64,000 bases of DNA, taken from Bacillota bacterium. Lineage in GTDB: Bacteria; Bacillota; Limnochordia; Limnochordales; DUMU01. The stretch spans positions 105,296 to 169,295 of the forward strand of contig DUMU01000035.1 of the NCBI GenBank assembly GCA_012839805.1. Direction: 5' to 3'. Of this stretch, positions 5,303 through 61,064 are shown piece by piece. The notes beneath the pieces were generated by a model. That model had not been told where the DNA came from. It was given only the letters and a program-made list of their open reading frames with translations, and did no database searches. How positions within the stretch are numbered: position 1 is the first letter of the stretch; each line of letters opens with the position of its first letter. The translations under genes were made by a program, and so were the position numbers.

Positions 5303-6010
5303 ATGGCAATGGCCGACGTGGATCCGGCGGTTCCCGTCTATCCCATCGGTGTGGTAGAAAAGCTGACCGGCCTTTCCGGACGACAAATCCGGTATTACGA
5401 GAAGACCGGACTCGTCATACCGGCCCGTACGAAGGGTAACCAGCGCCTCTACTCCCCCTTGGACGTGGACAAGCTCCTGCGGGTCAAGACGCTGCTGGCG
5501 GAAGGGCTCAACGTGGAAGGGGTACGCGCCATGCTGCGCAAGTCGGACCAGGAGCCGGCACGTGGCATCGCGGGGAGTTATGACCAGGCGGCAGCGACCG
5601 CCTCCGGCGGGGTGGGCGGGATGGTGGCCGCGGGCGCTACCGGCCCGAGCGGCCTGGCGAAACCCGGTAACATGGCGGGCCCGGCCGGCGCGGCCGGCGC
5701 GGCGGCTGGGGTTGCGGTAGCGACCGGGGTAGGAGGAACGACCTCTGCCGGGGCGGTGCAAATGACCGGCATCGGTACCGGTGCCGGTACCAGAGCCGAT
5801 ACGGCTCCGGGGTATTTGTCGTCGGAGCTTGCCGTATACGGAACGGGCCAGCTCGCGGAAGTTCCGTCACGGGAGGCCCTCGCGGCCGGCCGGAAGCTCT
5901 CCTCACTCTACCCGGTCACGAACCAGGCGGAGCTGCTGCGGATCTTGCAGGAGAACGAGCGCAGCGGGAAGAAGGGCCCGGCCAGGGAGGGCAAGACCGG
6001 GTCATGGTAA
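5303..6010 (+). CDS. glnR: MerR-family nitrogen regulator, GlnR/TnrA-like, with a long Ala/Gly-rich linker
   Basis: The start is ATG 5303 inside ORF 5036..6010. MAMADVDPAVPVYPIGVVEKLTGLSGRQIRYYEKTGLVIPARTKGNQRLYSPLDVDKLLRVKTLLAEGLNVEGVRAML aligns by eye with the B. subtilis GlnR HTH region. It overlaps glnA by 7 nt, the classic glnRA arrangement. Confidence 0.85.
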   Translation: MAMADVDPAVPVYPIGVVEKLTGLSGRQIRYYEKTGLVIPARTKGNQRLYSPLDVDKLLRVKTLLAEGLNVEGVRAMLRKSDQEPARGIAGSYDQAAATASGGVGGMVAAGATGPSGLAKPGNMAGPAGAAGAAAGVAVATGVGGTTSAGAVQMTGIGTGAGTRADTAPGYLSSELAVYGTGQLAEVPSREALAAGRKLSSLYPVTNQAELLRILQENERSGKKGPAREGKTGSW

Positions 6011-7332
6011 CCACTGCCAAAGATGTTCTGCAGCTGGTAGCCGAGAGGAACGTACGCTTTATCCGGTTGCAGTTCACCGACATATTGGGAGTGGTGAAGA
6101 ACGTCGCCATTCCCGTCAGTGAACTAGAGCGGGCGCTGGCCAACGAGATCATGTTCGACGGTTCTTCCATCGAGGGTTTCACCCGCATCGAAGAATCGGA
6201 CATGAACCTGCGCCCGGACCCGTCTACTTTCGCACTTTTTCCATGGCGACCGCGGGAGAACGCGGTCGCCCGCCTTATTTGCGACGTTTACCATCCGGAC
6301 GGTTCACCTTTTGCCGGTGATCCCCGCCACGTGTTGCGCCGGGCGCTGAACGAAGCGGCCACGCTTGGCTTTTCCGTGCAGATCGGCGCGGAATGTGAGT
6401 TTTTCCTCTTTCACCGTTCACCGGAAGGGAAGCCTACCACGGTGACCCACGACGAGGCGGGTTACTTCGATCTCGGGCCCGTCGACCTTGGTGAGGATGC
6501 CCGGCGCGACATCGTAATCGCGTTGGCCGAGATGGGGATACAAGTGGAAGCGTCGCATCATGAAGTAGCTCCCGGACAACACGAAATCGATCTAAAATAC
6601 AGTGACGCCCTTACTGCTGCCGACCAGGTGGTCACCTTGAAGTTCGTCGCCCGTACCATCGCCCGGCAGCATGACTTGCATGCCACTTTCATGCCTAAAC
6701 CTCTCTTTGGCGTCAACGGTTCGGGCATGCACGTGCACCTATCACTTCTCCGGGGCGGGCAGAATGCTTTCTTCGATCCTCAAGGGCCTCACGGGCTGAG
6801 CCAAGCAGCCCTGTATTTCATTGGCGGGCTGCTCGCTCACGCGCCGGCCTATACCGCGGTTACCAATCCGCTGGTGAACTCCTACAAGCGTCTGGTTCCC
6901 GGCTATGAAGCGCCGGTTCACGTCGCGTGGTCGGTGCAGAACCGCAGCACGCTGGTGCGAGTCCCGGTGCAGCGGGGAGCGGGCACGCGCCTCGAACTCC
7001 GTTCCCCGGACCCGTCCTGCAACCCGTATCTGGCGTTCGCGGTGATAATCCGGGCCGGTCTGGACGGCATTCGCCGGCGTATCGAGCCGCCGCCTCCGGT
7101 GGATCGGAATCTTTATGAGATGACCGCGGCGGAGCGGGCGAGCCTGGGTATCCGGCGCCTGCCCGCCAACCTGGCCGAAGCCCTGGCCGCCCTGGAAAAC
7201 GATCCGTTGATCGCCGAAACGTTGGGGGAGCATGTCTACACCCACTTCCTGGATGCTAAGCGGATCGAGTGGGAGATCTACAATAGCCAGGTTTCCAACT
7301 GGGAACTCGACCAATACCTGGGGACGTTCTAG
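6004..7332 (+). CDS. glnA: glutamine synthetase, type I (copy 1)
   Basis: 442 aa. Contains [40 protein letters not shown], the NGSGMHVH motif and [13 protein letters not shown]. Length and motifs are typical of GSI. Confidence 0.97.
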   Translation: MVTTAKDVLQLVAERNVRFIRLQFTDILGVVKNVAIPVSELERALANEIMFDGSSIEGFTRIEESDMNLRPDPSTFALFPWRPRENAVARLICDVYHPDGSPFAGDPRHVLRRALNEAATLGFSVQIGAECEFFLFHRSPEGKPTTVTHDEAGYFDLGPVDLGEDARRDIVIALAEMGIQVEASHHEVAPGQHEIDLKYSDALTAADQVVTLKFVARTIARQHDLHATFMPKPLFGVNGSGMHVHLSLLRGGQNAFFDPQGPHGLSQAALYFIGGLLAHAPAYTAVTNPLVNSYKRLVPGYEAPVHVAWSVQNRSTLVRVPVQRGAGTRLELRSPDPSCNPYLAFAVIIRAGLDGIRRRIEPPPPVDRNLYEMTAAERASLGIRRLPANLAEALAALENDPLIAETLGEHVYTHFLDAKRIEWEIYNSQVSNWELDQYLGTF

Positions 7333-7519
7333 CAACGCTCTAGGCTGACATACATGCCGCGAAGCTACCTGCACGGGCCTGTCCGGACGAACGAGGGGCG
7401 GGAGCAGGCCCGGCCTCTTGTTCCTTGACCCCTGGGCGGGCGGCCGGCCGGAATATTGTAACCGGGACCCGGATAGAGAAGAAGGAATCGGTCACCTTAC
7501 GTCGAATGCATCTGCAGTA

Positions 7520-7538
7520 ATTTGTCCAGTGGTCAAAT
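7520..7538. promoter_or_regulatory. 19-nt near-perfect palindrome, candidate operator upstream of the ROK regulator
   Basis: ATTTGTCCAGTGGTCAAAT has 8 of 9 symmetric pairs. It lies in an AT-richer patch about 75 nt upstream of the ROK regulator start. This resembles the AT-rich palindromic operators of NagC/XylR-type ROK repressors. Confidence 0.3.
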
Positions 7539-7613
7539 AAATCTCGCTTCTCCGCCTGGTTAGTCCTGGTAATGGTGCCGGCTGCCCGGGCGAAGAAAGG
7601 GCTTGAGCTCGCG

Positions 7614-8894
7614 ATGCGCAAACGAAGTTCACAGGAGATGCGCAGCCACAACCAGGCGCTTCTCATCAACCTGATCCGAGAACGGGGTCCTGTTTCCCGC
7701 GCCGACCTGGTCAGGCTTACTTCGCTCAGTCCTACTACTGTTTCCACGATCGTGGGTCGCCTTATTCGTCAGGGTTTGATTCTTGAAGAATCCTCTACCG
7801 CCCGCCGGGGCGGTGCTGGCCGGCCGGCTATCAAGCTCCGTCTGAACCCGAAGTACGGCCAGGTGATCGGCGTTGATCTCGGTGTGTCTCGCATCGTTGT
7901 GGCGCTGGCGGACCTGCAAGGCCAGCTGCTAGCCCGGGTCGAAAGTCCCACTCCCCGAGAGGCCGAAACCGGGAAAACCGTCTCGGCTTGTGTCACGACC
8001 ATTCTGATGCTGATCGAAAAGCTCCCCGTCGGGCGACTCCTCGGCGTGGGAATGGGTCTTCCCGGGCTCGTCGACACCGCCTCCGGCGTGTCGCTCGTCT
8101 CTCCCAACCTGGGCTTCCGGAACGTCCCCTTCGGCGAATTGCTTCACCGTGCCCTCCGGGTTCCGGTCTTCCTGGAAAACGTGATCCATGTAACGACGCT
8201 CGGTGAAAAATGGTTCGGAGCCGGGGTTGACGTCGACGACATGATCTGCCTCGGGGTGGGCAGCGGCATCGGGGCGGGCGTAGTGGTGGACGGTCGCCTC
8301 TACCGGGGTCCGCTTGACAGTGCCGGTGAGATCGGCCACTCGCCTATCCCCCAGATATGCGCGGCTGAACCGCTTATTCCCGTGGGTGAACGTTGTGCGT
8401 GCGGCCGCACCGGGTGCCTGGAAACGGTAAGCAGCGGGCCGGCCATCGCCCGGGCGGCCGCCCGCGCCGCGGCCTCCGGTAAGTCGCAGGTGCTGGCCGG
8501 CCGGCTGGCTGAGCAGGGTAGCCGGTTCAGTGCCGCCGATGTCACGTGGGCGGCGGAAGCAGGTGACCCCATCGCCAGGCAGATCCTCAGCGAAGCCGGA
8601 ACGTACCTGGGCCTTGCCGTTGCCACGCTGGTCAACGTTTTCGGCATCGGAACGGTAGTAGCCGGCGGTGGTGTTTTCGGAGCCGGTCGCTGGATATGGG
8701 AGCCCATGGTCCGGGCCGCCCGGGCGCATGTTTTCTCGGTTGCTCCGGAGACGCTGCAGATCCGGCCTCGAGCCCTCGGTAGTGACGCGAGCCTGGTCGG
8801 GGCGGTCTCCCTTGCCCTGCAGCATCTAGTCTTCGAGTTCCCCGAACAGGAGGTGGTGGCAAGTTGCGTCCGCTCAACCACAGACAACTACTGA
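7614..8894 (+). CDS. ROK-family transcriptional repressor (NagC/XylR type)
   Basis: The N-terminal wHTH reads NQALLINLIRERGPVSRADLVRLTSLSPTTVSTIVGRLIRQGLI. The ROK sugar-kinase fold carries the zinc motif CACGRTGCLE. The start is ATG 7614 or 7572. Confidence 0.85.
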   Translation: MRKRSSQEMRSHNQALLINLIRERGPVSRADLVRLTSLSPTTVSTIVGRLIRQGLILEESSTARRGGAGRPAIKLRLNPKYGQVIGVDLGVSRIVVALADLQGQLLARVESPTPREAETGKTVSACVTTILMLIEKLPVGRLLGVGMGLPGLVDTASGVSLVSPNLGFRNVPFGELLHRALRVPVFLENVIHVTTLGEKWFGAGVDVDDMICLGVGSGIGAGVVVDGRLYRGPLDSAGEIGHSPIPQICAAEPLIPVGERCACGRTGCLETVSSGPAIARAAARAAASGKSQVLAGRLAEQGSRFSAADVTWAAEAGDPIARQILSEAGTYLGLAVATLVNVFGIGTVVAGGGVFGAGRWIWEPMVRAARAHVFSVAPETLQIRPRALGSDASLVGAVSLALQHLVFEFPEQEVVASCVRSTTDNY

Positions 8895-34820: not shown

Positions 34821-36380
34821 ATGAAGCGCATCTCCCTTCTACTTGCTCTCGTGGCGGTGTTGGCGCTGGCGGGGACTGCCGCTGCGGGGCCGAACGTCTC
34901 TATCAGCGGCGAGAGCACGCTGGTCGTCTCGGGCAACACGGACGATCTCACTCCGAGCGTTGGCGGCCTCACTTTCGGAATGAAGCAGGATATCTCCATC
35001 AGTGGCGACAAGTGGTCTCTGAGCGGGAAGCTGTATCTGCCCCATTCGGCTTCCCTGAGCATCAGTGACCCGACGGAAACGAAAGAAGTGCTTACCCGCT
35101 TCTGGGTAAAGGAAGTTAACGAGGGTACCGAGGAAGCCCCGGACTACCATTACTACGTGGAGGAGCTCGGATGGGAGCTCATTCAAGTGTCTGGGAACTG
35201 GGTAGCTATCACCGGCTACGATGACGAGGATAACCCGGAGTTGGTAGAGGAGTTCTACGAAATCTACATTGACGACCAGGATAAGCCGGTCGTCGTCGTA
35301 GCTCTTGTGAGTCTCACTTACGTGAAGGATGTGTCCGGCAGCCTTACGCATGGCTCGAATCCCTGGTTCTCACTTACGAGCTGGAAGCTGACGATGGACG
35401 CCGGGGCGGCCAAGTTCGCGTTCGCCAACGGCGCCGACCTGACAGACTATGGGGATCACCTGGGCTTCATCAGCTTGGCCAAGGGTGCAAGCGGTAATCA
35501 CATGCAGGTGACCGTACCGCTTCAGAACCTGACGCTTGTCTATGATAAGGCTGGTGCCCAGGAAGGCGCCTATGTTAAGATCGCAAAGGGGGTCATCCCG
35601 GCCGAAGTCATCGGGATGTACGACGCCACCACCAGCCGGTATTCTGCGACAGTCCGCTACGACTTCGGGGGTGGACTTTGGACCGAAATCGGTGCAGTAA
35701 TGGCGCAGGGCAAGACCAACGGTGCGGGCTACGGTGCCGAGGTCAACGTACCCCTCACCCAAGACCAGTCGCTGGTCGCGTACATCGTCGGCAAGCAGTT
35801 TGGCAGCGGGTATACGGACACAGCGCTTAACGGCCGTACTGTCACGCTAGGTCAGCTGACCTACACGCAACCGCAGTACAAGGCGAAGGCGTACATCTGG
35901 ACCAAGTTCAAGGCCGACGGTTCGGTCGAGCAGCGCGATCATTATTTGGAGGGCTCTCTCGTACAGAAGGCGGGAGACCCGCTCGGCTGGTACACCGACT
36001 GGCCCTATAACAAGTATCGCAACCTGAAAGGACTTGGGCTCTACGCGAAGTACGACATCGACTCGCCGGCTCTCGTGGCTGGCCTAGGGGCGCCGGTGGT
36101 CCCGGGTAAGGCTGCACTCAAGCTCTCGAGCCCGAACCTGCTGGCGAAGGACGCCAACAATAAGGGTATCGTAGAGGTCAACGGAGAGCTTTATGTGAAG
36201 CTGAGCGACAAGCTCAACTCGGTGACTAACGTGCAGTACAAGCAGGGCACGGGTGTGACCCAGCTCCAGGATACGCTCAACTACACCGTGTCGAGCAACT
36301 CTTCGATCAGCCTAACGCTGACGAAGCCGACTAATGCCAACCGGCTGGATTACACGGCCACCTTCAAGGTCTCCTACTGA
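34821..36380 (+). CDS. putative outer-membrane beta-barrel (porin-like) protein 2
   Basis: GAGGAGG lies 7 nt before the ATG. The signal peptide is MKRISLLLALVAVLALAGTAAAG. The mature N-terminus GPNVSISGE parallels GPSLSGSLE of protein 1. The C-terminus is LDYTATFKVSY, with a terminal Tyr and alternating hydrophobic residues at -3 to -11. Confidence 0.55.
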   Translation: MKRISLLLALVAVLALAGTAAAGPNVSISGESTLVVSGNTDDLTPSVGGLTFGMKQDISISGDKWSLSGKLYLPHSASLSISDPTETKEVLTRFWVKEVNEGTEEAPDYHYYVEELGWELIQVSGNWVAITGYDDEDNPELVEEFYEIYIDDQDKPVVVVALVSLTYVKDVSGSLTHGSNPWFSLTSWKLTMDAGAAKFAFANGADLTDYGDHLGFISLAKGASGNHMQVTVPLQNLTLVYDKAGAQEGAYVKIAKGVIPAEVIGMYDATTSRYSATVRYDFGGGLWTEIGAVMAQGKTNGAGYGAEVNVPLTQDQSLVAYIVGKQFGSGYTDTALNGRTVTLGQLTYTQPQYKAKAYIWTKFKADGSVEQRDHYLEGSLVQKAGDPLGWYTDWPYNKYRNLKGLGLYAKYDIDSPALVAGLGAPVVPGKAALKLSSPNLLAKDANNKGIVEVNGELYVKLSDKLNSVTNVQYKQGTGVTQLQDTLNYTVSSNSSISLTLTKPTNANRLDYTATFKVSY

Positions 36381-36426: not shown

Positions 36427-36979
36427 TCGCGCGTACTCCCGGCAAGGGTAGTGCCTATACGGTGAACGTTAGGAGTGCAGGGAGACCTGCGGGTGGCCCG
36501 GAGCGACCGGCAATCCAGCCTGAGAGGGCTGGCTGGGCCCGCAGGAGTCAGTAGAGGTCATAGTATCTGCGGAGGCACGAACACAGGGAAGGGCCGAACG
36601 GTGGAACAAGGGATCGAATTGGGCAAGTTCGCGAGGCGAGCAAAAAAGGGAGCCAAGCTGGAAACAGCGATCGGGGGGTGTCGCGGTTGCGCCCCTCCTG
36701 CTCGATGTCACGGGGTGAGCTCCGACGGGTGGTGGAGCTGGGCAGGAGAGGCTTGAAAAAGATAGGGCAACGGCATTAGTGGCAGCAGGAGATCGTGCAA
36801 GGGCGTCGAATGGAGCAAAGGCGCGGAAGGACGTCCGGAAGGCGCTCGCGCCGTGGTTTGACCGCTCCCGCAGGCATGTTGACGCCCAAACGTCAATATG
36901 ATGGAGAGAGGGGCTTGCGGCGGGTAGCGCCGAGCAGGGCACAAAAGGGCCCGGAGGGCATTGCGGGGAGGTAGGAGGA

Positions 36980-38089
<1,110 letters not shown>

Positions 38090-57084: not shown

Positions 57085-57753
57085 GTGTCAGAGACCCGGC
57101 GGGCGGTGGTGGAACGGCAAACCGCCGAAACCAAGATCCGGATAGAGGTAAATCTCGACGGGCGCGGGCAGGCACGAGTGAGAAGCGGGATCGGCTTCTT
57201 AGACCACATGCTGGCGACGCTGGCCCGGCACGCGTTCTTTGACCTCGACGTCGAGGCGCAGGGGGATCTCCAGGTAGATCCGCATCATACGGTGGAGGAC
57301 GTAGCCATCTGCCTGGGCCAGGCCATCGCGAAGGCTTTGGGCCGGCGGGAGGGGATTGCCCGTTTCGGGTGGGCGGTCATCCCCATGGACGATGCGCTGG
57401 TCATGGCGGCGGTAGACCTGAGCGGTCGCCCGTATAGCGACGTCGACCTGCCGTTGCTTTCGCCGCAGGTGGGGGCGCTCGATACCCAGCTTGTAGCCGA
57501 GTTCTTCCGGTCCTTGAGCTGGGCGGGGGCACTCAATCTGCACGTACGGCGGCTGGCAGGGCAAAACGACCACCACCTGGTCGAGGCGGCCTTCAAAGCA
57601 GTGGCCCGGGCCCTGGCCGCCGCGGTGGCCGGTGACCCGCGGACCGCCGGGAAGCCGCCGTCCACCAAAGGGGTGCTGGGCGAAGAGGATCACGGGGCGG
57701 ACGGGCAGTCGCAGCGACGGGCAGCGGGCGGCGGGAGCACGGGCGGCGGGTGA
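57085..57753 (+). CDS. hisB: imidazoleglycerol-phosphate dehydratase
   Basis: Contains RQTAETKIRIEVNLDG, GIGFLDHML, DPHHTVEDVAI and NDHHLVEAAFKA. The C-terminal tail is Gly-rich. Confidence 0.93.
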   Translation: MSETRRAVVERQTAETKIRIEVNLDGRGQARVRSGIGFLDHMLATLARHAFFDLDVEAQGDLQVDPHHTVEDVAICLGQAIAKALGRREGIARFGWAVIPMDDALVMAAVDLSGRPYSDVDLPLLSPQVGALDTQLVAEFFRSLSWAGALNLHVRRLAGQNDHHLVEAAFKAVARALAAAVAGDPRTAGKPPSTKGVLGEEDHGADGQSQRRAAGGGSTGGG

Positions 57754-59387
57754 GAAGATCTGTGGTGGAAGCGGAAACCGAAACCGTCATCGCCGTCCTG
57801 GATTACGGGATGGGGAACCTGCGCAGCGTGGCGAAAGCGCTGGAGCGGGCGGCCCAGGATGCAGCGGGCGACGGGCACCTCAAACCCAGGATTCTGGTGA
57901 CGAGCGATCCGGCGGTAGCCCGGAGCGCGGACGGGATCGTGCTGCCCGGAGTAGGTGCCTTCGGGGCAGCCATGGCCAATCTCCGGGATCGAGGGCTCGA
58001 CCGGGTCGTACGGGAGGCAATTTCCGAAAGCCGCCCCTTCCTGGGGATTTGCCTGGGCCTGCAGCTTCTCTTCGAAGAGAGCGAGGAGCGCTTCGGCGGG
58101 CTACGGCCGGAGGAACGGCTCAGGCCGGGGGCTTGGCCGGCGGCGGAGCAAGAGCCCGGGCTGGGGCGGCCAGGACGGGGGTCGCAGCCCAAGGCGGGGC
58201 AGGAGCAGGGTCAGGGGCTGCAGCCAGGGCAGGGGTTGCCCCGGGGGCTGAGCATCCTCCAGGGCCGGGTGCGCCGGTTTCCGCCCGGGCTGAAGGTCCC
58301 GCAGATCGGATGGAACGAACTCAAGCTTATCGATGCCGCTGCCAACCCTCTCTGGAGGGGCGTTCCACCCGGGGCTTACACGTATTTCGTTCACTCGTAT
58401 TATGTTGACCCGGAAGATCCGGCGGTGGTGGCGGCCACGGCGCATTACGGGGTGGAGTTCGCGGCGGCGGTGCGGCGGGGGAATCTGTTTGCCGTTCAGT
58501 TTCACCCGGAAAAGAGCAGCACGGTGGGGCTCACCATGCTGCGGAACTTCGTATGGGCGGTGGCCCGTTCACGAAAAGCCGCGGATTTTGTCTTGCCCGC
58601 GGTAGACCTCCGGGGAGGGCGGGCTGTGCGGCTGGTTCAGGGTGACCCGGCCCGGGAGACCCGTTATGCGGACGATCCCGTGGCGGTGGCGAGGGAGCTG
58701 GTACGCCAGGGGGCACGCCGGCTGCACGTGGTTGACCTGGACGGGGCTCTGGCGGGTGAGCCAAGGCAGCTGGAGCTGGTGGCCAGGATCGCCGAGGCGG
58801 TCCGGCAGGAGGCACGCTGGCAAGTCCGCATCGAACTGGGCGGGGGACTACGCACGTCCGATGATGTGGAGGCAGCCTTCGCCGCCGGGGTAGATGACGT
58901 GATTCTGGGCAGCTCTCTCCTGGCTGACGCCGGCCTGGTGGCCGAGCTGGTCCGCCGCCACCTGGGTCACGTGATGGCCGGCATTGACGTGCGCGCGGGG
59001 CGGGTGGCCGTGCGGGGCTGGCAGGAGGAAAGCGGGCTGGAAGCGAGGGCGGTGGTGCGCCGGGCTGTTGCTCTGGGTGTACGGAGGTTTATCGTGACGG
59101 ATATAGGCCGGGACGGGACGCTGGCCGGGCCCAATCTGGAGTTGGTCCGGGAGTTAGCCGAGGTGGCGGGCGAGCCGACGGGCCCGAGCGAAACCGCCGG
59201 GGCGGGCGGGCCGGTCCCGCTCGAGTTCGTCGTCTCGGGCGGGGTGCGGGACGAAAGCGATGTAGAAGCGGCAGCCCGGCTGCCATGGGCGGCCGGCGTA
59301 GTGGTGGGTCGAGCCCTCTACGACGGCCGGGTGAGCGTGGGACAGGCTTTGGCGGCCGCCCGGCGCGGGCTGGTGGCACGAGGATAG
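57750..59387 (+). CDS. single ORF encoding HisH (IGP synthase glutaminase subunit) fused to HisA (ProFAR isomerase)
   Basis: Residues 12-270 are HisH: IAVLDYGMGNLRSV, GICLGLQLLF, KVPQIGWN and FAVQFHPEKS. Residues 280-545 are HisA: VLPAVDLRGGRAVRLVQGD, HVVDLDGA, GGGLRT and FVVSGGVRD. I read the junction at 58500-58620 codon by codon and found no stop. Confidence 0.9.
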   Translation: MRRSVVEAETETVIAVLDYGMGNLRSVAKALERAAQDAAGDGHLKPRILVTSDPAVARSADGIVLPGVGAFGAAMANLRDRGLDRVVREAISESRPFLGICLGLQLLFEESEERFGGLRPEERLRPGAWPAAEQEPGLGRPGRGSQPKAGQEQGQGLQPGQGLPRGLSILQGRVRRFPPGLKVPQIGWNELKLIDAAANPLWRGVPPGAYTYFVHSYYVDPEDPAVVAATAHYGVEFAAAVRRGNLFAVQFHPEKSSTVGLTMLRNFVWAVARSRKAADFVLPAVDLRGGRAVRLVQGDPARETRYADDPVAVARELVRQGARRLHVVDLDGALAGEPRQLELVARIAEAVRQEARWQVRIELGGGLRTSDDVEAAFAAGVDDVILGSSLLADAGLVAELVRRHLGHVMAGIDVRAGRVAVRGWQEESGLEARAVVRRAVALGVRRFIVTDIGRDGTLAGPNLELVRELAEVAGEPTGPSETAGAGGPVPLEFVVSGGVRDESDVEAAARLPWAAGVVVGRALYDGRVSVGQALAAARRGLVARG

Positions 59388-59441
59388 CGGCCAACCCCGC
59401 CGCTTGACGAGGTACGGCGGGGGGGAGGAAGGGGAGCTTAC

Positions 59442-60260
59442 GTGCTGGCGAAGCGGATCATCCCCTGCCTGGACGTAAAGGGAGGACGAGTGGTCAAGGG
59501 TACTCACTTCGTTGAACTGCGAGATGCCGGTGATCCGGTGGAACTCGCCGCCTATTACGACCGGGAGGGTGCGGACGAACTGGTTTTCCTCGACATCACC
59601 GCCTCGGCCGAGCGGCGGCGTACCATTATCGATCTGGCGCGCCGGGTGGCCGAGGAGGTCTTTATACCCTTCACGGTAGGCGGGGGTATCGGCTCGGTGG
59701 AGGAGATCAGGGAAATCCTGCTCGCAGGGGCGGACAAGGTATCGATCAACACCGCGGCCGTCCAGCGCCCCGAGCTGATCAGCGAGGCCGCTGAACTTTT
59801 CGGCAGCCAATGCATCGTCGTGGCTATCGACGCCCGCCGCCGGCGGCCAGAGCCGGAGCAGGTCCAGGTGCAGACCCGGGATCAATGGCAGAACGAGGGC
59901 CCGGCGCCCCCCAGGTTCGAAGTGGTCATCCACGGTGGCCGAACCCCTACGGGGCTCGATGCCATCCGGTGGGCCCAAGAGGCGGAGCGCCGGGGGGCGG
60001 GCGAGATCCTGCTCACCAGCATGGACACCGACGGGGTCCAGGAGGGCTACGACCTCGAACTGACCCGGGCCGTAGCGGAGGCTGTCTCCATCCCGGTCAT
60101 CGCCTCCGGCGGCGCGGGCCGGCTGGAAGACCTGCGCGATGCCCTTACCATTGGCCAGGCGGACGCGGCGCTGGCGGCCTCCATCTTTCACTTCCGGCGG
60201 TTCACCATAAGAGAGGCGAAAGAGTTCTTGCGCGCTTCGGGAGTGCCGGTCCGGCTGTAG
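59442..60260 (+). CDS. hisF: imidazole glycerol phosphate synthase cyclase subunit
   Basis: GTG start 5 nt after GGAAGGGGAG. Contains [43 protein letters not shown] and IASGGAG. Confidence 0.95.
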
Positions 60261-60335: not shown

Positions 60336-61064
60336 ATGGACGAACGGCAGCCGCGATCAGGGCAACCTCCGGAGCTGCGGTTTCAGGATGGGTTAATCCC
60401 GGCCGTGGTTCAGGACGTGGAAACCGGCCAGGTGCTGATGCTCGCCTACATGAATGAAGAGTCCCTGCGCCGGACGCTGGCCGAGAGGCGTACGTGGTTT
60501 TGGAGTCGCTCCCGCCAGGCGTTGTGGCCCAAAGGCGAGACCAGCGGCAATGTCCAGCAGGTGGTCTCGGTGACGCTGGACTGCGACGGCGATGCGCTGC
60601 TCGTCAAAGTGAGGCAGCAAGGAACGGGCGCCTGCCACGAGGGAGACTTCTCCTGCTTCCACTACCCGGTGGAACTGCCTGCTCCTGCTCCCGTCCCGCC
60701 ATCCGCCAGCTCAGGAGAGGGCTCACGAGAGCGCCCAGGAGCAGAGGAGGACGAGCCTCGTGAGGCCGGGGGCGACCTTGACGGGGCGGAAATCCTGGCC
60801 GAGCTCTGGCAGGTGATCGGTGAACGAAAGCAGCATCCCGCTCCGGAGTCGTACACCAGTCGTCTGTTCGAGCAAGGGGTCGCCCGGATAGCCCAAAAGG
60901 TGGGAGAGGAAGCTGTGGAGACGGCCATCGAGGCCGTGCGAGGGAATCCCGGCGGCGTCGCTTATGAAGCCGCCGACCTCATCTATCACCTGCTGGTGCT
61001 CCTGGCAACCAGCGGTATCTCCCCCCGGCAGGTCTTTGCCGAACTGCGCTCCCGCCGCCGCTAG
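60336..61064 (+). CDS. hisIE: bifunctional phosphoribosyl-AMP cyclohydrolase / phosphoribosyl-ATP pyrophosphatase
   Basis: The HisI part reads [38 protein letters not shown] and [16 protein letters not shown]. An acidic/Pro linker follows. The HisE part reads [23 protein letters not shown] and [13 protein letters not shown]. Confidence 0.93.

Follow-up and report, generated by a model that had tools for sequence, protein, structure and literature searches.

A fused hisH–hisA gene in the histidine operon of a Limnochordia-type bacterium

Introduction

The stretch of DNA analysed here, referred to as the window, comprises 64,000 nucleotides of a contig from a Bacillota bacterium of the order Limnochordales (DUMU01000035.1, positions 105,296 to 169,295 of the forward strand). 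It carries a histidine operon in which the genes are arranged in the order hisZ (HisS-like), hisG, hisD, hisB, hisHA, hisF and hisIE, as read from the list of open reading frames (ORFs) and from Pfam. The subject of this report is hisHA, a single ORF on the forward strand (57750..59387, GTG start, 545 codons plus TAG) that encodes a HisH glutaminase followed by a HisA ProFAR isomerase. The union of the two genes in one 545-codon ORF had been proposed in an original prediction made from the letters of the window, and the ORF list, Pfam and NCBIfam agree on it.

Fusions of his genes are a textbook model for the evolution of metabolic pathways and operons. Five are catalogued in PMC1963479, namely the hisA/hisF elongation, hisIE, hisHF (HIS7), hisNB and HIS4. 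Later reviews count seven his genes as fusion partners (D, B, N, I, E, F and H), a set that leaves out hisA (PMC7284861, PMC10138114); a survey of archaea recorded HisHF and HisA/F–HisIE fusions only (PMC11237513). A metabolon built from the hisBHAF products is treated as an unconfirmed hypothesis (PMC7284861, PMC10138114, PMC8305728). No HisH–HisA or hisHA fusion was found by a full-text literature search, in which the matches were Corynebacterium operon names and unrelated words, and neither HisH–HisA nor HisA–HisF is listed in the his-fusion catalogues of PMC1963479, PMC7284861 and PMC10138114.

Results and discussion

The fused reading frame and its junction

The nucleotide sequence was read through from 58500 to 58620 and contains neither a stop codon nor a frame shift, and the junction peptide quoted in the prediction, FAVQFHPEKSSTVGLTMLRNFVWAVARSRKAADFVLPAVDLRGGRAVRLVQGD, is exact. 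Pfam assigns residues 59–270 to GATase (PF00117) and residues 281–528 to His_biosynth (PF00977). An alternative GTG start at 57762 would yield a form of 541 amino-acid residues, which is known from other assemblies. The junction (58572..58589, forward strand) comprises residues R275–F280, a six-residue connector that leads from the C-terminal helix of HisH (residues 257–274) to strand 1 of HisA (residues 281–288). A linker does join the halves, but it is structurally shorter in the model (∼6 residues) than the nine residues initially proposed. Its length is identical in all five Limnochordia-type fusions, the sequences of which align without gaps from ...LRNF to ...PA(I/V)DLR.

No Shine–Dalgarno-like sequence lies at the junction: such a motif was sought, in the window and three relatives, within 18 nt upstream of every in-frame ATG, GTG or TTG close to the junction, and none was found, in contrast to the clear GGAGG ahead of hisF and hisIE. 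The TTG at 58593 had been named as a possible start for free HisA. Both the codon (L282) and the lack of a Shine–Dalgarno sequence were confirmed, but a role as a start is unlikely, as this position does not keep a start-type codon in relatives, which have CTG, CTT and GTG there (CTG or CTT in two of them). The GTG at 58560 (V271) is kept in all four Limnochordia-type loci examined and sits within the last HisH helix. Internal initiation at the junction is therefore unlikely.

The HisH half and its insertion

The HisH domain, a class I glutamine amidotransferase, extends over residues ∼12–274 (57783..58571, forward strand), as delimited by NCBIfam, Pfam, the alignment and Foldseek. It scores 198.2 bits against TIGR01855 (HisH; cutoff 105.4), the NCBIfam match being split in two by an insertion, and 67.1 bits against PF00117 (cutoff 22.8). 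The catalytic triad is present as C101 (in GICLG), H252 and E254 (both in FHPEKS); among 48 aligned fusions C101 is invariant and the other two residues are conserved to at least 90%. The alignment also shows W188 and K255 to be conserved, which are equivalent to W123 and K181 of Thermotoga maritima HisH, at the interface with HisF. When the AlphaFold2 model of this half was compared with the PDB using Foldseek, TMt values of 0.89–0.91 were obtained for 4gud, 1kxj and 1ka9_H, the first two reaching 0.91.

The insertion (residues G117–P159; 58098..58226, forward strand) is rich in Gly, Gln and Pro, begins 16 residues past the catalytic Cys and forms a loop following the SEE motif that is predicted to be disordered. 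It had been put at 50 residues; it is real, and this size is approximately right, as 43 extra residues are counted against the four closest relatives and ∼47 against distant ones. It is missing in those four relatives (P0002–P0005) and in every distant fusion and is present in a 99%-identical variant (P0122). An imperfect 18 bp (six-codon) tandem repeat of 3.7 copies (58169..58235, forward strand) lies inside it, and part of the insertion probably originated by slippage of this repeat. In the AlphaFold2 model the predicted local distance difference test score (pLDDT) falls below 50 for residues 128–159 and exceeds 90 in the flanking core. Low-complexity insertions of other kinds, at other places in the protein, occur in P0004 and P0005, so such segments appear to be a habit of the lineage and not a functional module. 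Judged from the repeat and the model, it is a disordered stretch confined to this species, probably derived in part by slippage, for which no role is evident.

The HisA half

Residues 281–545 (58590..59384, forward strand) form the HisA domain, the ProFAR isomerase with a predicted (β/α)8-barrel fold, as indicated by NCBIfam, Pfam, the alignment and Foldseek. Among the barrel models HisA scores far above the others, with 206.6 bits for TIGR00007 (residues 281–531), 131.5 bits for PriA (TIGR01919) and 61.5 bits for HisF (TIGR00735); the score for PF00977 is 207.2 bits (cutoff 23.6). An identity as PriA, the bifunctional HisA/TrpF enzyme, was considered and rejected because the TIGR01919 score is far below its cutoff of 306. 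The catalytic aspartates of strands 1 and 6 in Salmonella enterica HisA (5ahe), D7 and D176, correspond in the alignment to D286 and D455, and D129 corresponds to D413; all three are invariant or nearly so in the 48 fusions. Foldseek matched this half to the HisA/PriA structures 3zs4, 4tx9 and 5a5w (TMt 0.91, root-mean-square deviation 1.8–1.9 Å, 33–36% identity), and its identity is 26% to the HisF of the window and 25% to the HisF-LUCA structure. By profile, alignment and modelled fold, the C-terminal barrel is HisA, not HisF. All of the catalytic residues are thus present, in keeping with the proposal that both halves retain their signature motifs.

Independent assemblies and close relatives

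The identical 545-residue protein occurs on five contigs, including a 331 kb contig from a biogas-fermenter metagenome (ERZ925058 / DRR066657), and is deposited at NCBI as HHV55551.1, a protein from a metagenome-assembled genome (MAG) labelled only 'HisH'. Further Logan and ENA assemblies contribute 541- and 545-residue variants at 97–100% identity to the 90% cluster of the window protein. Four relatives from Limnochordaceae MAGs (P0002–P0005) share 55–63% identity with it and have the same two-domain chain. A stop codon or an indel at the junction in related genomes would have pointed to an artefact; in all four the junction is uninterrupted. P0002 corresponds to another NCBI MAG from that accession series. 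For P0005 there are two independent sources, a Limnochordaceae MAG and a Logan assembly, and its operon has the order hisZ-G-D-B-[HA]-F(-IE); like the window protein, P0005 is annotated only as 'HisH'. The relatives lie in syntenic his operons (L082/L083, an NCBI MAG and an independent Logan assembly; L086; L002).

One candidate for a stand-alone HisA among these relatives was rejected. P0129, a protein with 67% identity retrieved in a HisA-only search, is the sole annotation at L086 5383–6867 (GCA_014896315.1), where a 288-residue 'HisA' is accompanied by an unannotated gap of 630 nt. The locus translates to a full fused ORF identical to P0002, and the annotated start of P0129 is an ATG inside this ORF, at a position in the C-terminal helix of HisH.

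One of these loci (L002) lies on a 10 kb contig assigned to 'Bacteroidota bacterium MAG139' (JBLNBY010000262.1), with hisHA and hisF products 60% and 81% identical to those of the window. As these identities are far above expectation for Bacteroidota, the contig probably comes from a Limnochordia-like organism and was mis-binned or misclassified.

Because the fusion recurs in independent assemblies and in diverged relatives, it is not an artefact; on these comparisons it is heritable and conserved in its clade. HisH–HisA is absent from the searched literature, yet already present in public databases under HisH or HisA labels.

Structure models and docking of HisF

An AlphaFold2 model of the fusion, computed from 48 fused sequences, has a mean pLDDT of 90.6 and a predicted template-modelling score (pTM) of 0.89, with residues 1–7 and 128–159 as its only disordered parts. 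The junction (residues 270–280) is modelled at pLDDT 96–98 as an ordered helix-to-strand connection. When the whole chain was fitted to yeast HIS7 (1ox4, 1jvn), the template-modelling (TM) score was 0.34–0.36 and the root-mean-square deviation ∼19.7 Å. Single domains reach 0.91, so the low whole-chain score indicates that the HisA barrel is not modelled at the position of HisF.

A natural HisH–HisA–HisF triple fusion (P0012) was also modelled (pLDDT 92.3, pTM 0.75). On HIS7 it gave a TM score of 0.75, normalised to the length of HIS7, over 788 alignment columns, in which HisH and HisF match and HisA is the gap. This model argues that a HisA tethered to the C-terminus of HisH is compatible with canonical HisH:HisF docking. 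The fusion had been called mechanistically odd because HisH must dock onto a separate HisF. This is overstated: the models put HisA off the HisF docking site, and the triple fusion is modelled with HIS7-like docking.

Frequency and recurrence

In a scan of 185,579 GTDB species genomes, one per species, 80 loci covered both halves of the query. These could be taken for a widespread fusion, a reading that was rejected when stop-to-stop ORFs were drawn: 78 of the 80 lack a fused hisH–hisA, most having separate genes. The two fused ORFs are those of L002 and of a Thermoleophilia locus (L054). A single stop codon, that of hisH, is all that separates hisH from an in-frame hisA at 20 of the 80 loci, so that one point mutation would suffice to fuse them.

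Fusions dominate the best 120 full-length matches in a collection of 5.8 billion proteins. An exhaustive HMMER search of 1.84 billion representatives of 50%-identity clusters returned 1,496 proteins at E ≤ 1e-30, and among the best 150 of these are 13 HisH–HisA, three triple, 11 HisA–HisF and eight HisH–HisF representatives. Over all searches, the chains were classified as at least 83 HisH–HisA, 16 HisH–HisA–HisF, 16 HisA–HisF and 30 HisH–HisF. Clustered at 60% HisA identity, the 83 HisH–HisA proteins form 44 groups, of which the largest have 12, nine (the window clade), seven and five members; in several singleton groups the closest HisA is a stand-alone protein (66–74% identity). From these groupings, the HisH–HisA fusion is rare, recurrent and polyphyletic. 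The earlier view that it lies outside the classical cases holds in so far as the fusion is missing from the review catalogues of his fusions, but it is not unique, with at least 83 proteins in 44 groups in public data.

The non-Limnochordia fusions with context examined lie in his operons with hisF directly downstream, and hisF is kept immediately downstream in every HisH–HisA locus examined; one triple fusion is placed between hisB and hisIE. The complementary HisA–HisF fusion was found in a Limnochordales MAG (GCA_036562195.1, L084/L085 6001–7536), where a 511-residue protein (P0074) is encoded in an operon without hisH and hisD, the flanks of which are syntenic with the window (hpt-guaA-hisZ-hisG-hisB-...-hisIE).

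A 472-residue HisH–HisA protein with a linker of ∼40 residues (P0032, UniProt A0A9P1BGG0) is recorded from Cladocopium goreaui on a 7.4 Mb contig; it is either a eukaryotic case of HisH–HisA or bacterial contamination.

Origin and function of the fusion

With good confidence, hisHA can be explained as an inherited fusion that followed the loss of an ancestral stop codon, with the HisH half serving as the glutaminase of imidazole glycerol phosphate synthase and the HisA half as ProFAR isomerase. Loss of the stop codon between hisH and hisA is the most likely origin given the sequences compared: in an ancestor of the Limnochordia-type lineage, the stop between the adjacent genes would have been lost and a single polypeptide would have resulted. 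Its N-terminal half would be the glutaminase subunit of imidazole glycerol phosphate synthase and its C-terminal half would catalyse the preceding step. Both halves are shown to carry their catalytic residues and are predicted to adopt normal HisH and HisA folds. The HisH half would still dock in the usual way on the separate HisF, and a 1:1 HisHA:HisF assembly would then cover pathway steps 4 and 5. The fusion would fix the stoichiometry and bring the producer of N′-[(5′-phosphoribulosyl)formimino]-5-aminoimidazole-4-carboxamide ribonucleotide (PRFAR) next to its consumer. In addition, PRFAR activates the HisH glutaminase allosterically. The fusion may represent real substrate channelling, or it may be a near-neutral result of a compact operon.

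Several points count against this explanation. The TIGR00007 score of the HisA half lies below the equivalog cutoff of 228.95; two small lineage-specific insertions, at residues ∼349–353 and ∼474–490, coincide with the shortfall. That HisA leaves the HisF-binding face of HisH free we infer solely from whole-chain TM scores, and the triple fusion P0012 is a different protein, distantly related to that of the window. Many of the fusions outside the Limnochordia type were seen on a single contig, and some could be sequencing errors. A stand-alone hisH or hisA may exist elsewhere in the genome; the search for one, which found none, covered the 64 kb of the window.

An assembly or sequencing artefact, in which a lost stop codon or a 1 nt indel falsely joins two genes, might be suspected in a contig derived from a MAG, the more so as the lone 288-residue 'HisA' (P0129) annotated in a relative looks at first sight like evidence for separate genes. 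The same protein on five contigs, the near-identical variants in separate Logan and ENA assemblies and the uninterrupted junction in four relatives at 55–63% identity speak against it, and the P0129 locus really holds the full fused ORF; an artefact is so improbable that it can almost be neglected. A different possibility is that two proteins are made from the fused ORF, by an internal start (for example GTG 58560 or TTG 58593) or by cleavage of the linker, and that the fusion has no effect. Internal starts are frequent in fused bacterial genes, and all four Limnochordia-type loci inspected share the GTG at V271. The candidate starts are, however, without a Shine–Dalgarno-like motif such as hisF and hisIE have, and TTG 58593 is replaced in two relatives; the linker has a conserved length and is modelled as ordered and not as a flexible, cleavable tether. 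We regard the production of two proteins as unlikely.

One half could also be a degenerate passenger, for instance a HisH inactivated by the 43-residue insertion, with another gene copy serving in its place. The size and low complexity of the insertion so close to the catalytic Cys would fit, as would the equivalog shortfall of the HisA half. Set against this are the intact catalytic residues of both halves (C101/H252/E254 and D286/D413/D455), which are conserved across the fusions, the modelling of the insertion as a disordered surface loop on a well predicted core, the retention of the fusion in relatives that lack the insertion, and the single copy of each step in an operon with no paralogue in the window. 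A passenger half is accordingly rated as very unlikely. Finally, the fused HisA barrel, as a paralogue of HisF, might take the docking site of HisF on HisH and so regulate or replace that partnership. HisA and HisF share a fold, and in yeast HIS7 (1jvn, 1ox4) the barrel likewise follows the HisH C-terminus through a short linker. The fusion model does not resemble HIS7 as a whole (TM score 0.35, root-mean-square deviation ∼19.7 Å) while its single domains fit well, and hisF is retained immediately downstream in each fusion locus examined. HisA chemistry, moreover, requires no ammonia. We give this arrangement hardly any credence.

Beyond the inherited fusion with two working halves, HisHA, the HisA–HisF proteins of sister Limnochordales and HisHAF could be read as Rosetta-stone evidence for a general association of HisA with HisH:HisF, in which tethered HisA would hand the labile PRFAR to HisF, coupled to activation of the glutaminase. 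We consider this rather doubtful; if such an association were true, it would offer, for the first time, a tangible approach to the hisBHAF metabolon, long a hypothesis.

The catalogue of his fusions is extended by a hisH–hisA fusion that is inherited in a Limnochordia-type clade and recurs in many lineages, alongside hisA–hisF and hisH–hisA–hisF. Comparison of these fusions lends support to a hypothetical complex of the hisBHAF 'core' enzymes, and the natural HisHA and HisHAF proteins are ready constructs for studies of PRFAR channelling. The inconsistent labels ('HisH' only or a truncated 'HisA' only) can cause pathway reconstructions to report hisA or hisH as missing.

Comparison with known systems

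hisHA is biochemically plausible; it is not a categorically new system but belongs to a well-known kind, the his gene fusions. It resembles eukaryotic HIS7 and bacterial HisHF in that an N-terminal HisH is followed by a short linker and a (β/α)8 barrel of the HisA/HisF superfamily, and in that neighbouring functions of the histidine pathway are fused. It differs from them in that its barrel is HisA, the preceding enzyme, whereas the barrel of HIS7 is the ammonia-accepting HisF, and the domain arrangement in the model is not HIS7-like. As in hisIE, hisNB and HIS4 (hisIED), adjacent genes of a his operon have become one bifunctional polypeptide; unlike these, the pair hisH–hisA is uncatalogued in PMC1963479.

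The same consecutive genes, in the same order and in his operons, are joined in metagenomic HisH–HisA–HisF proteins (for example P0012, P0006 and P0007) and HisA–HisF proteins (for example P0074 and P0080, from Limnochordales). The window differs from the triple fusions in its separate HisF and from the Limnochordales HisA–HisF lineage in that the complementary fusion is present there, in an operon without hisH. With the HisH:HisF heterodimer and monomeric HisA of T. maritima and Escherichia coli it shares catalytic residues, folds and pathway roles; W188 and K255 of HisH and the Asp of the HisF motif GADKVS are conserved as in these stand-alone systems. The covalent link, the 43-residue disordered HisH loop and the small HisA insertions set it apart from the stand-alone enzymes.

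Operon context

The gene upstream of hisHA is hisB, which encodes imidazole glycerol phosphate dehydratase (57085..57753, forward strand) and is translationally coupled to hisHA, the stop codon of hisB and the GTG start of hisHA sharing four nucleotides (GTGA). The C-terminal tail of HisB is of low complexity and Gly-rich, its codons being supplied by a GCGGCGG repeat at 57714–57750.

Downstream, hisF, the gene for the cyclase subunit of imidazole glycerol phosphate synthase, is a separate gene with a GTG start (59442..60260, forward strand); its predicted position at 59442 was confirmed. Its product is presumably the obligate partner of the HisH half. The interval 59385..59441 (forward strand) consists of the TAG stop of hisHA (59385–59387) and 18 sense codons in the frame shared with hisF; it has no further stop codon and contains the strong Shine–Dalgarno sequence of hisF, GGGGGAGGAAGGGGAG. 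The stop-to-stop ORFs for hisHA (5887..7635) and hisF (7639..8508) adjoin at L001. The window locus is one stop-codon point mutation short of a HisH–HisA–HisF triple fusion, for example of the P0012 type. The HisF of the window contains an extra low-complexity segment of ∼16 residues. A hisIE fusion follows at 60336..61064, with a long linker rich in Pro, Ala and Glu between its domains. The operon otherwise has one copy per pathway step.

Other features of the window

An Rfam match to group-II-D1D4-1 was recorded at 36511–36594 on the forward strand (57.7 bits, E = 9e-8), between an ORF of 519 residues (34821..36380, forward strand), for which no Pfam match was obtained at E ≤ 0.001, and an ORF encoding a MalK-like ABC ATPase (36980..38089). 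As no reverse-transcriptase ORF is adjacent, the match may represent an intron fragment or an ORF-less intron.

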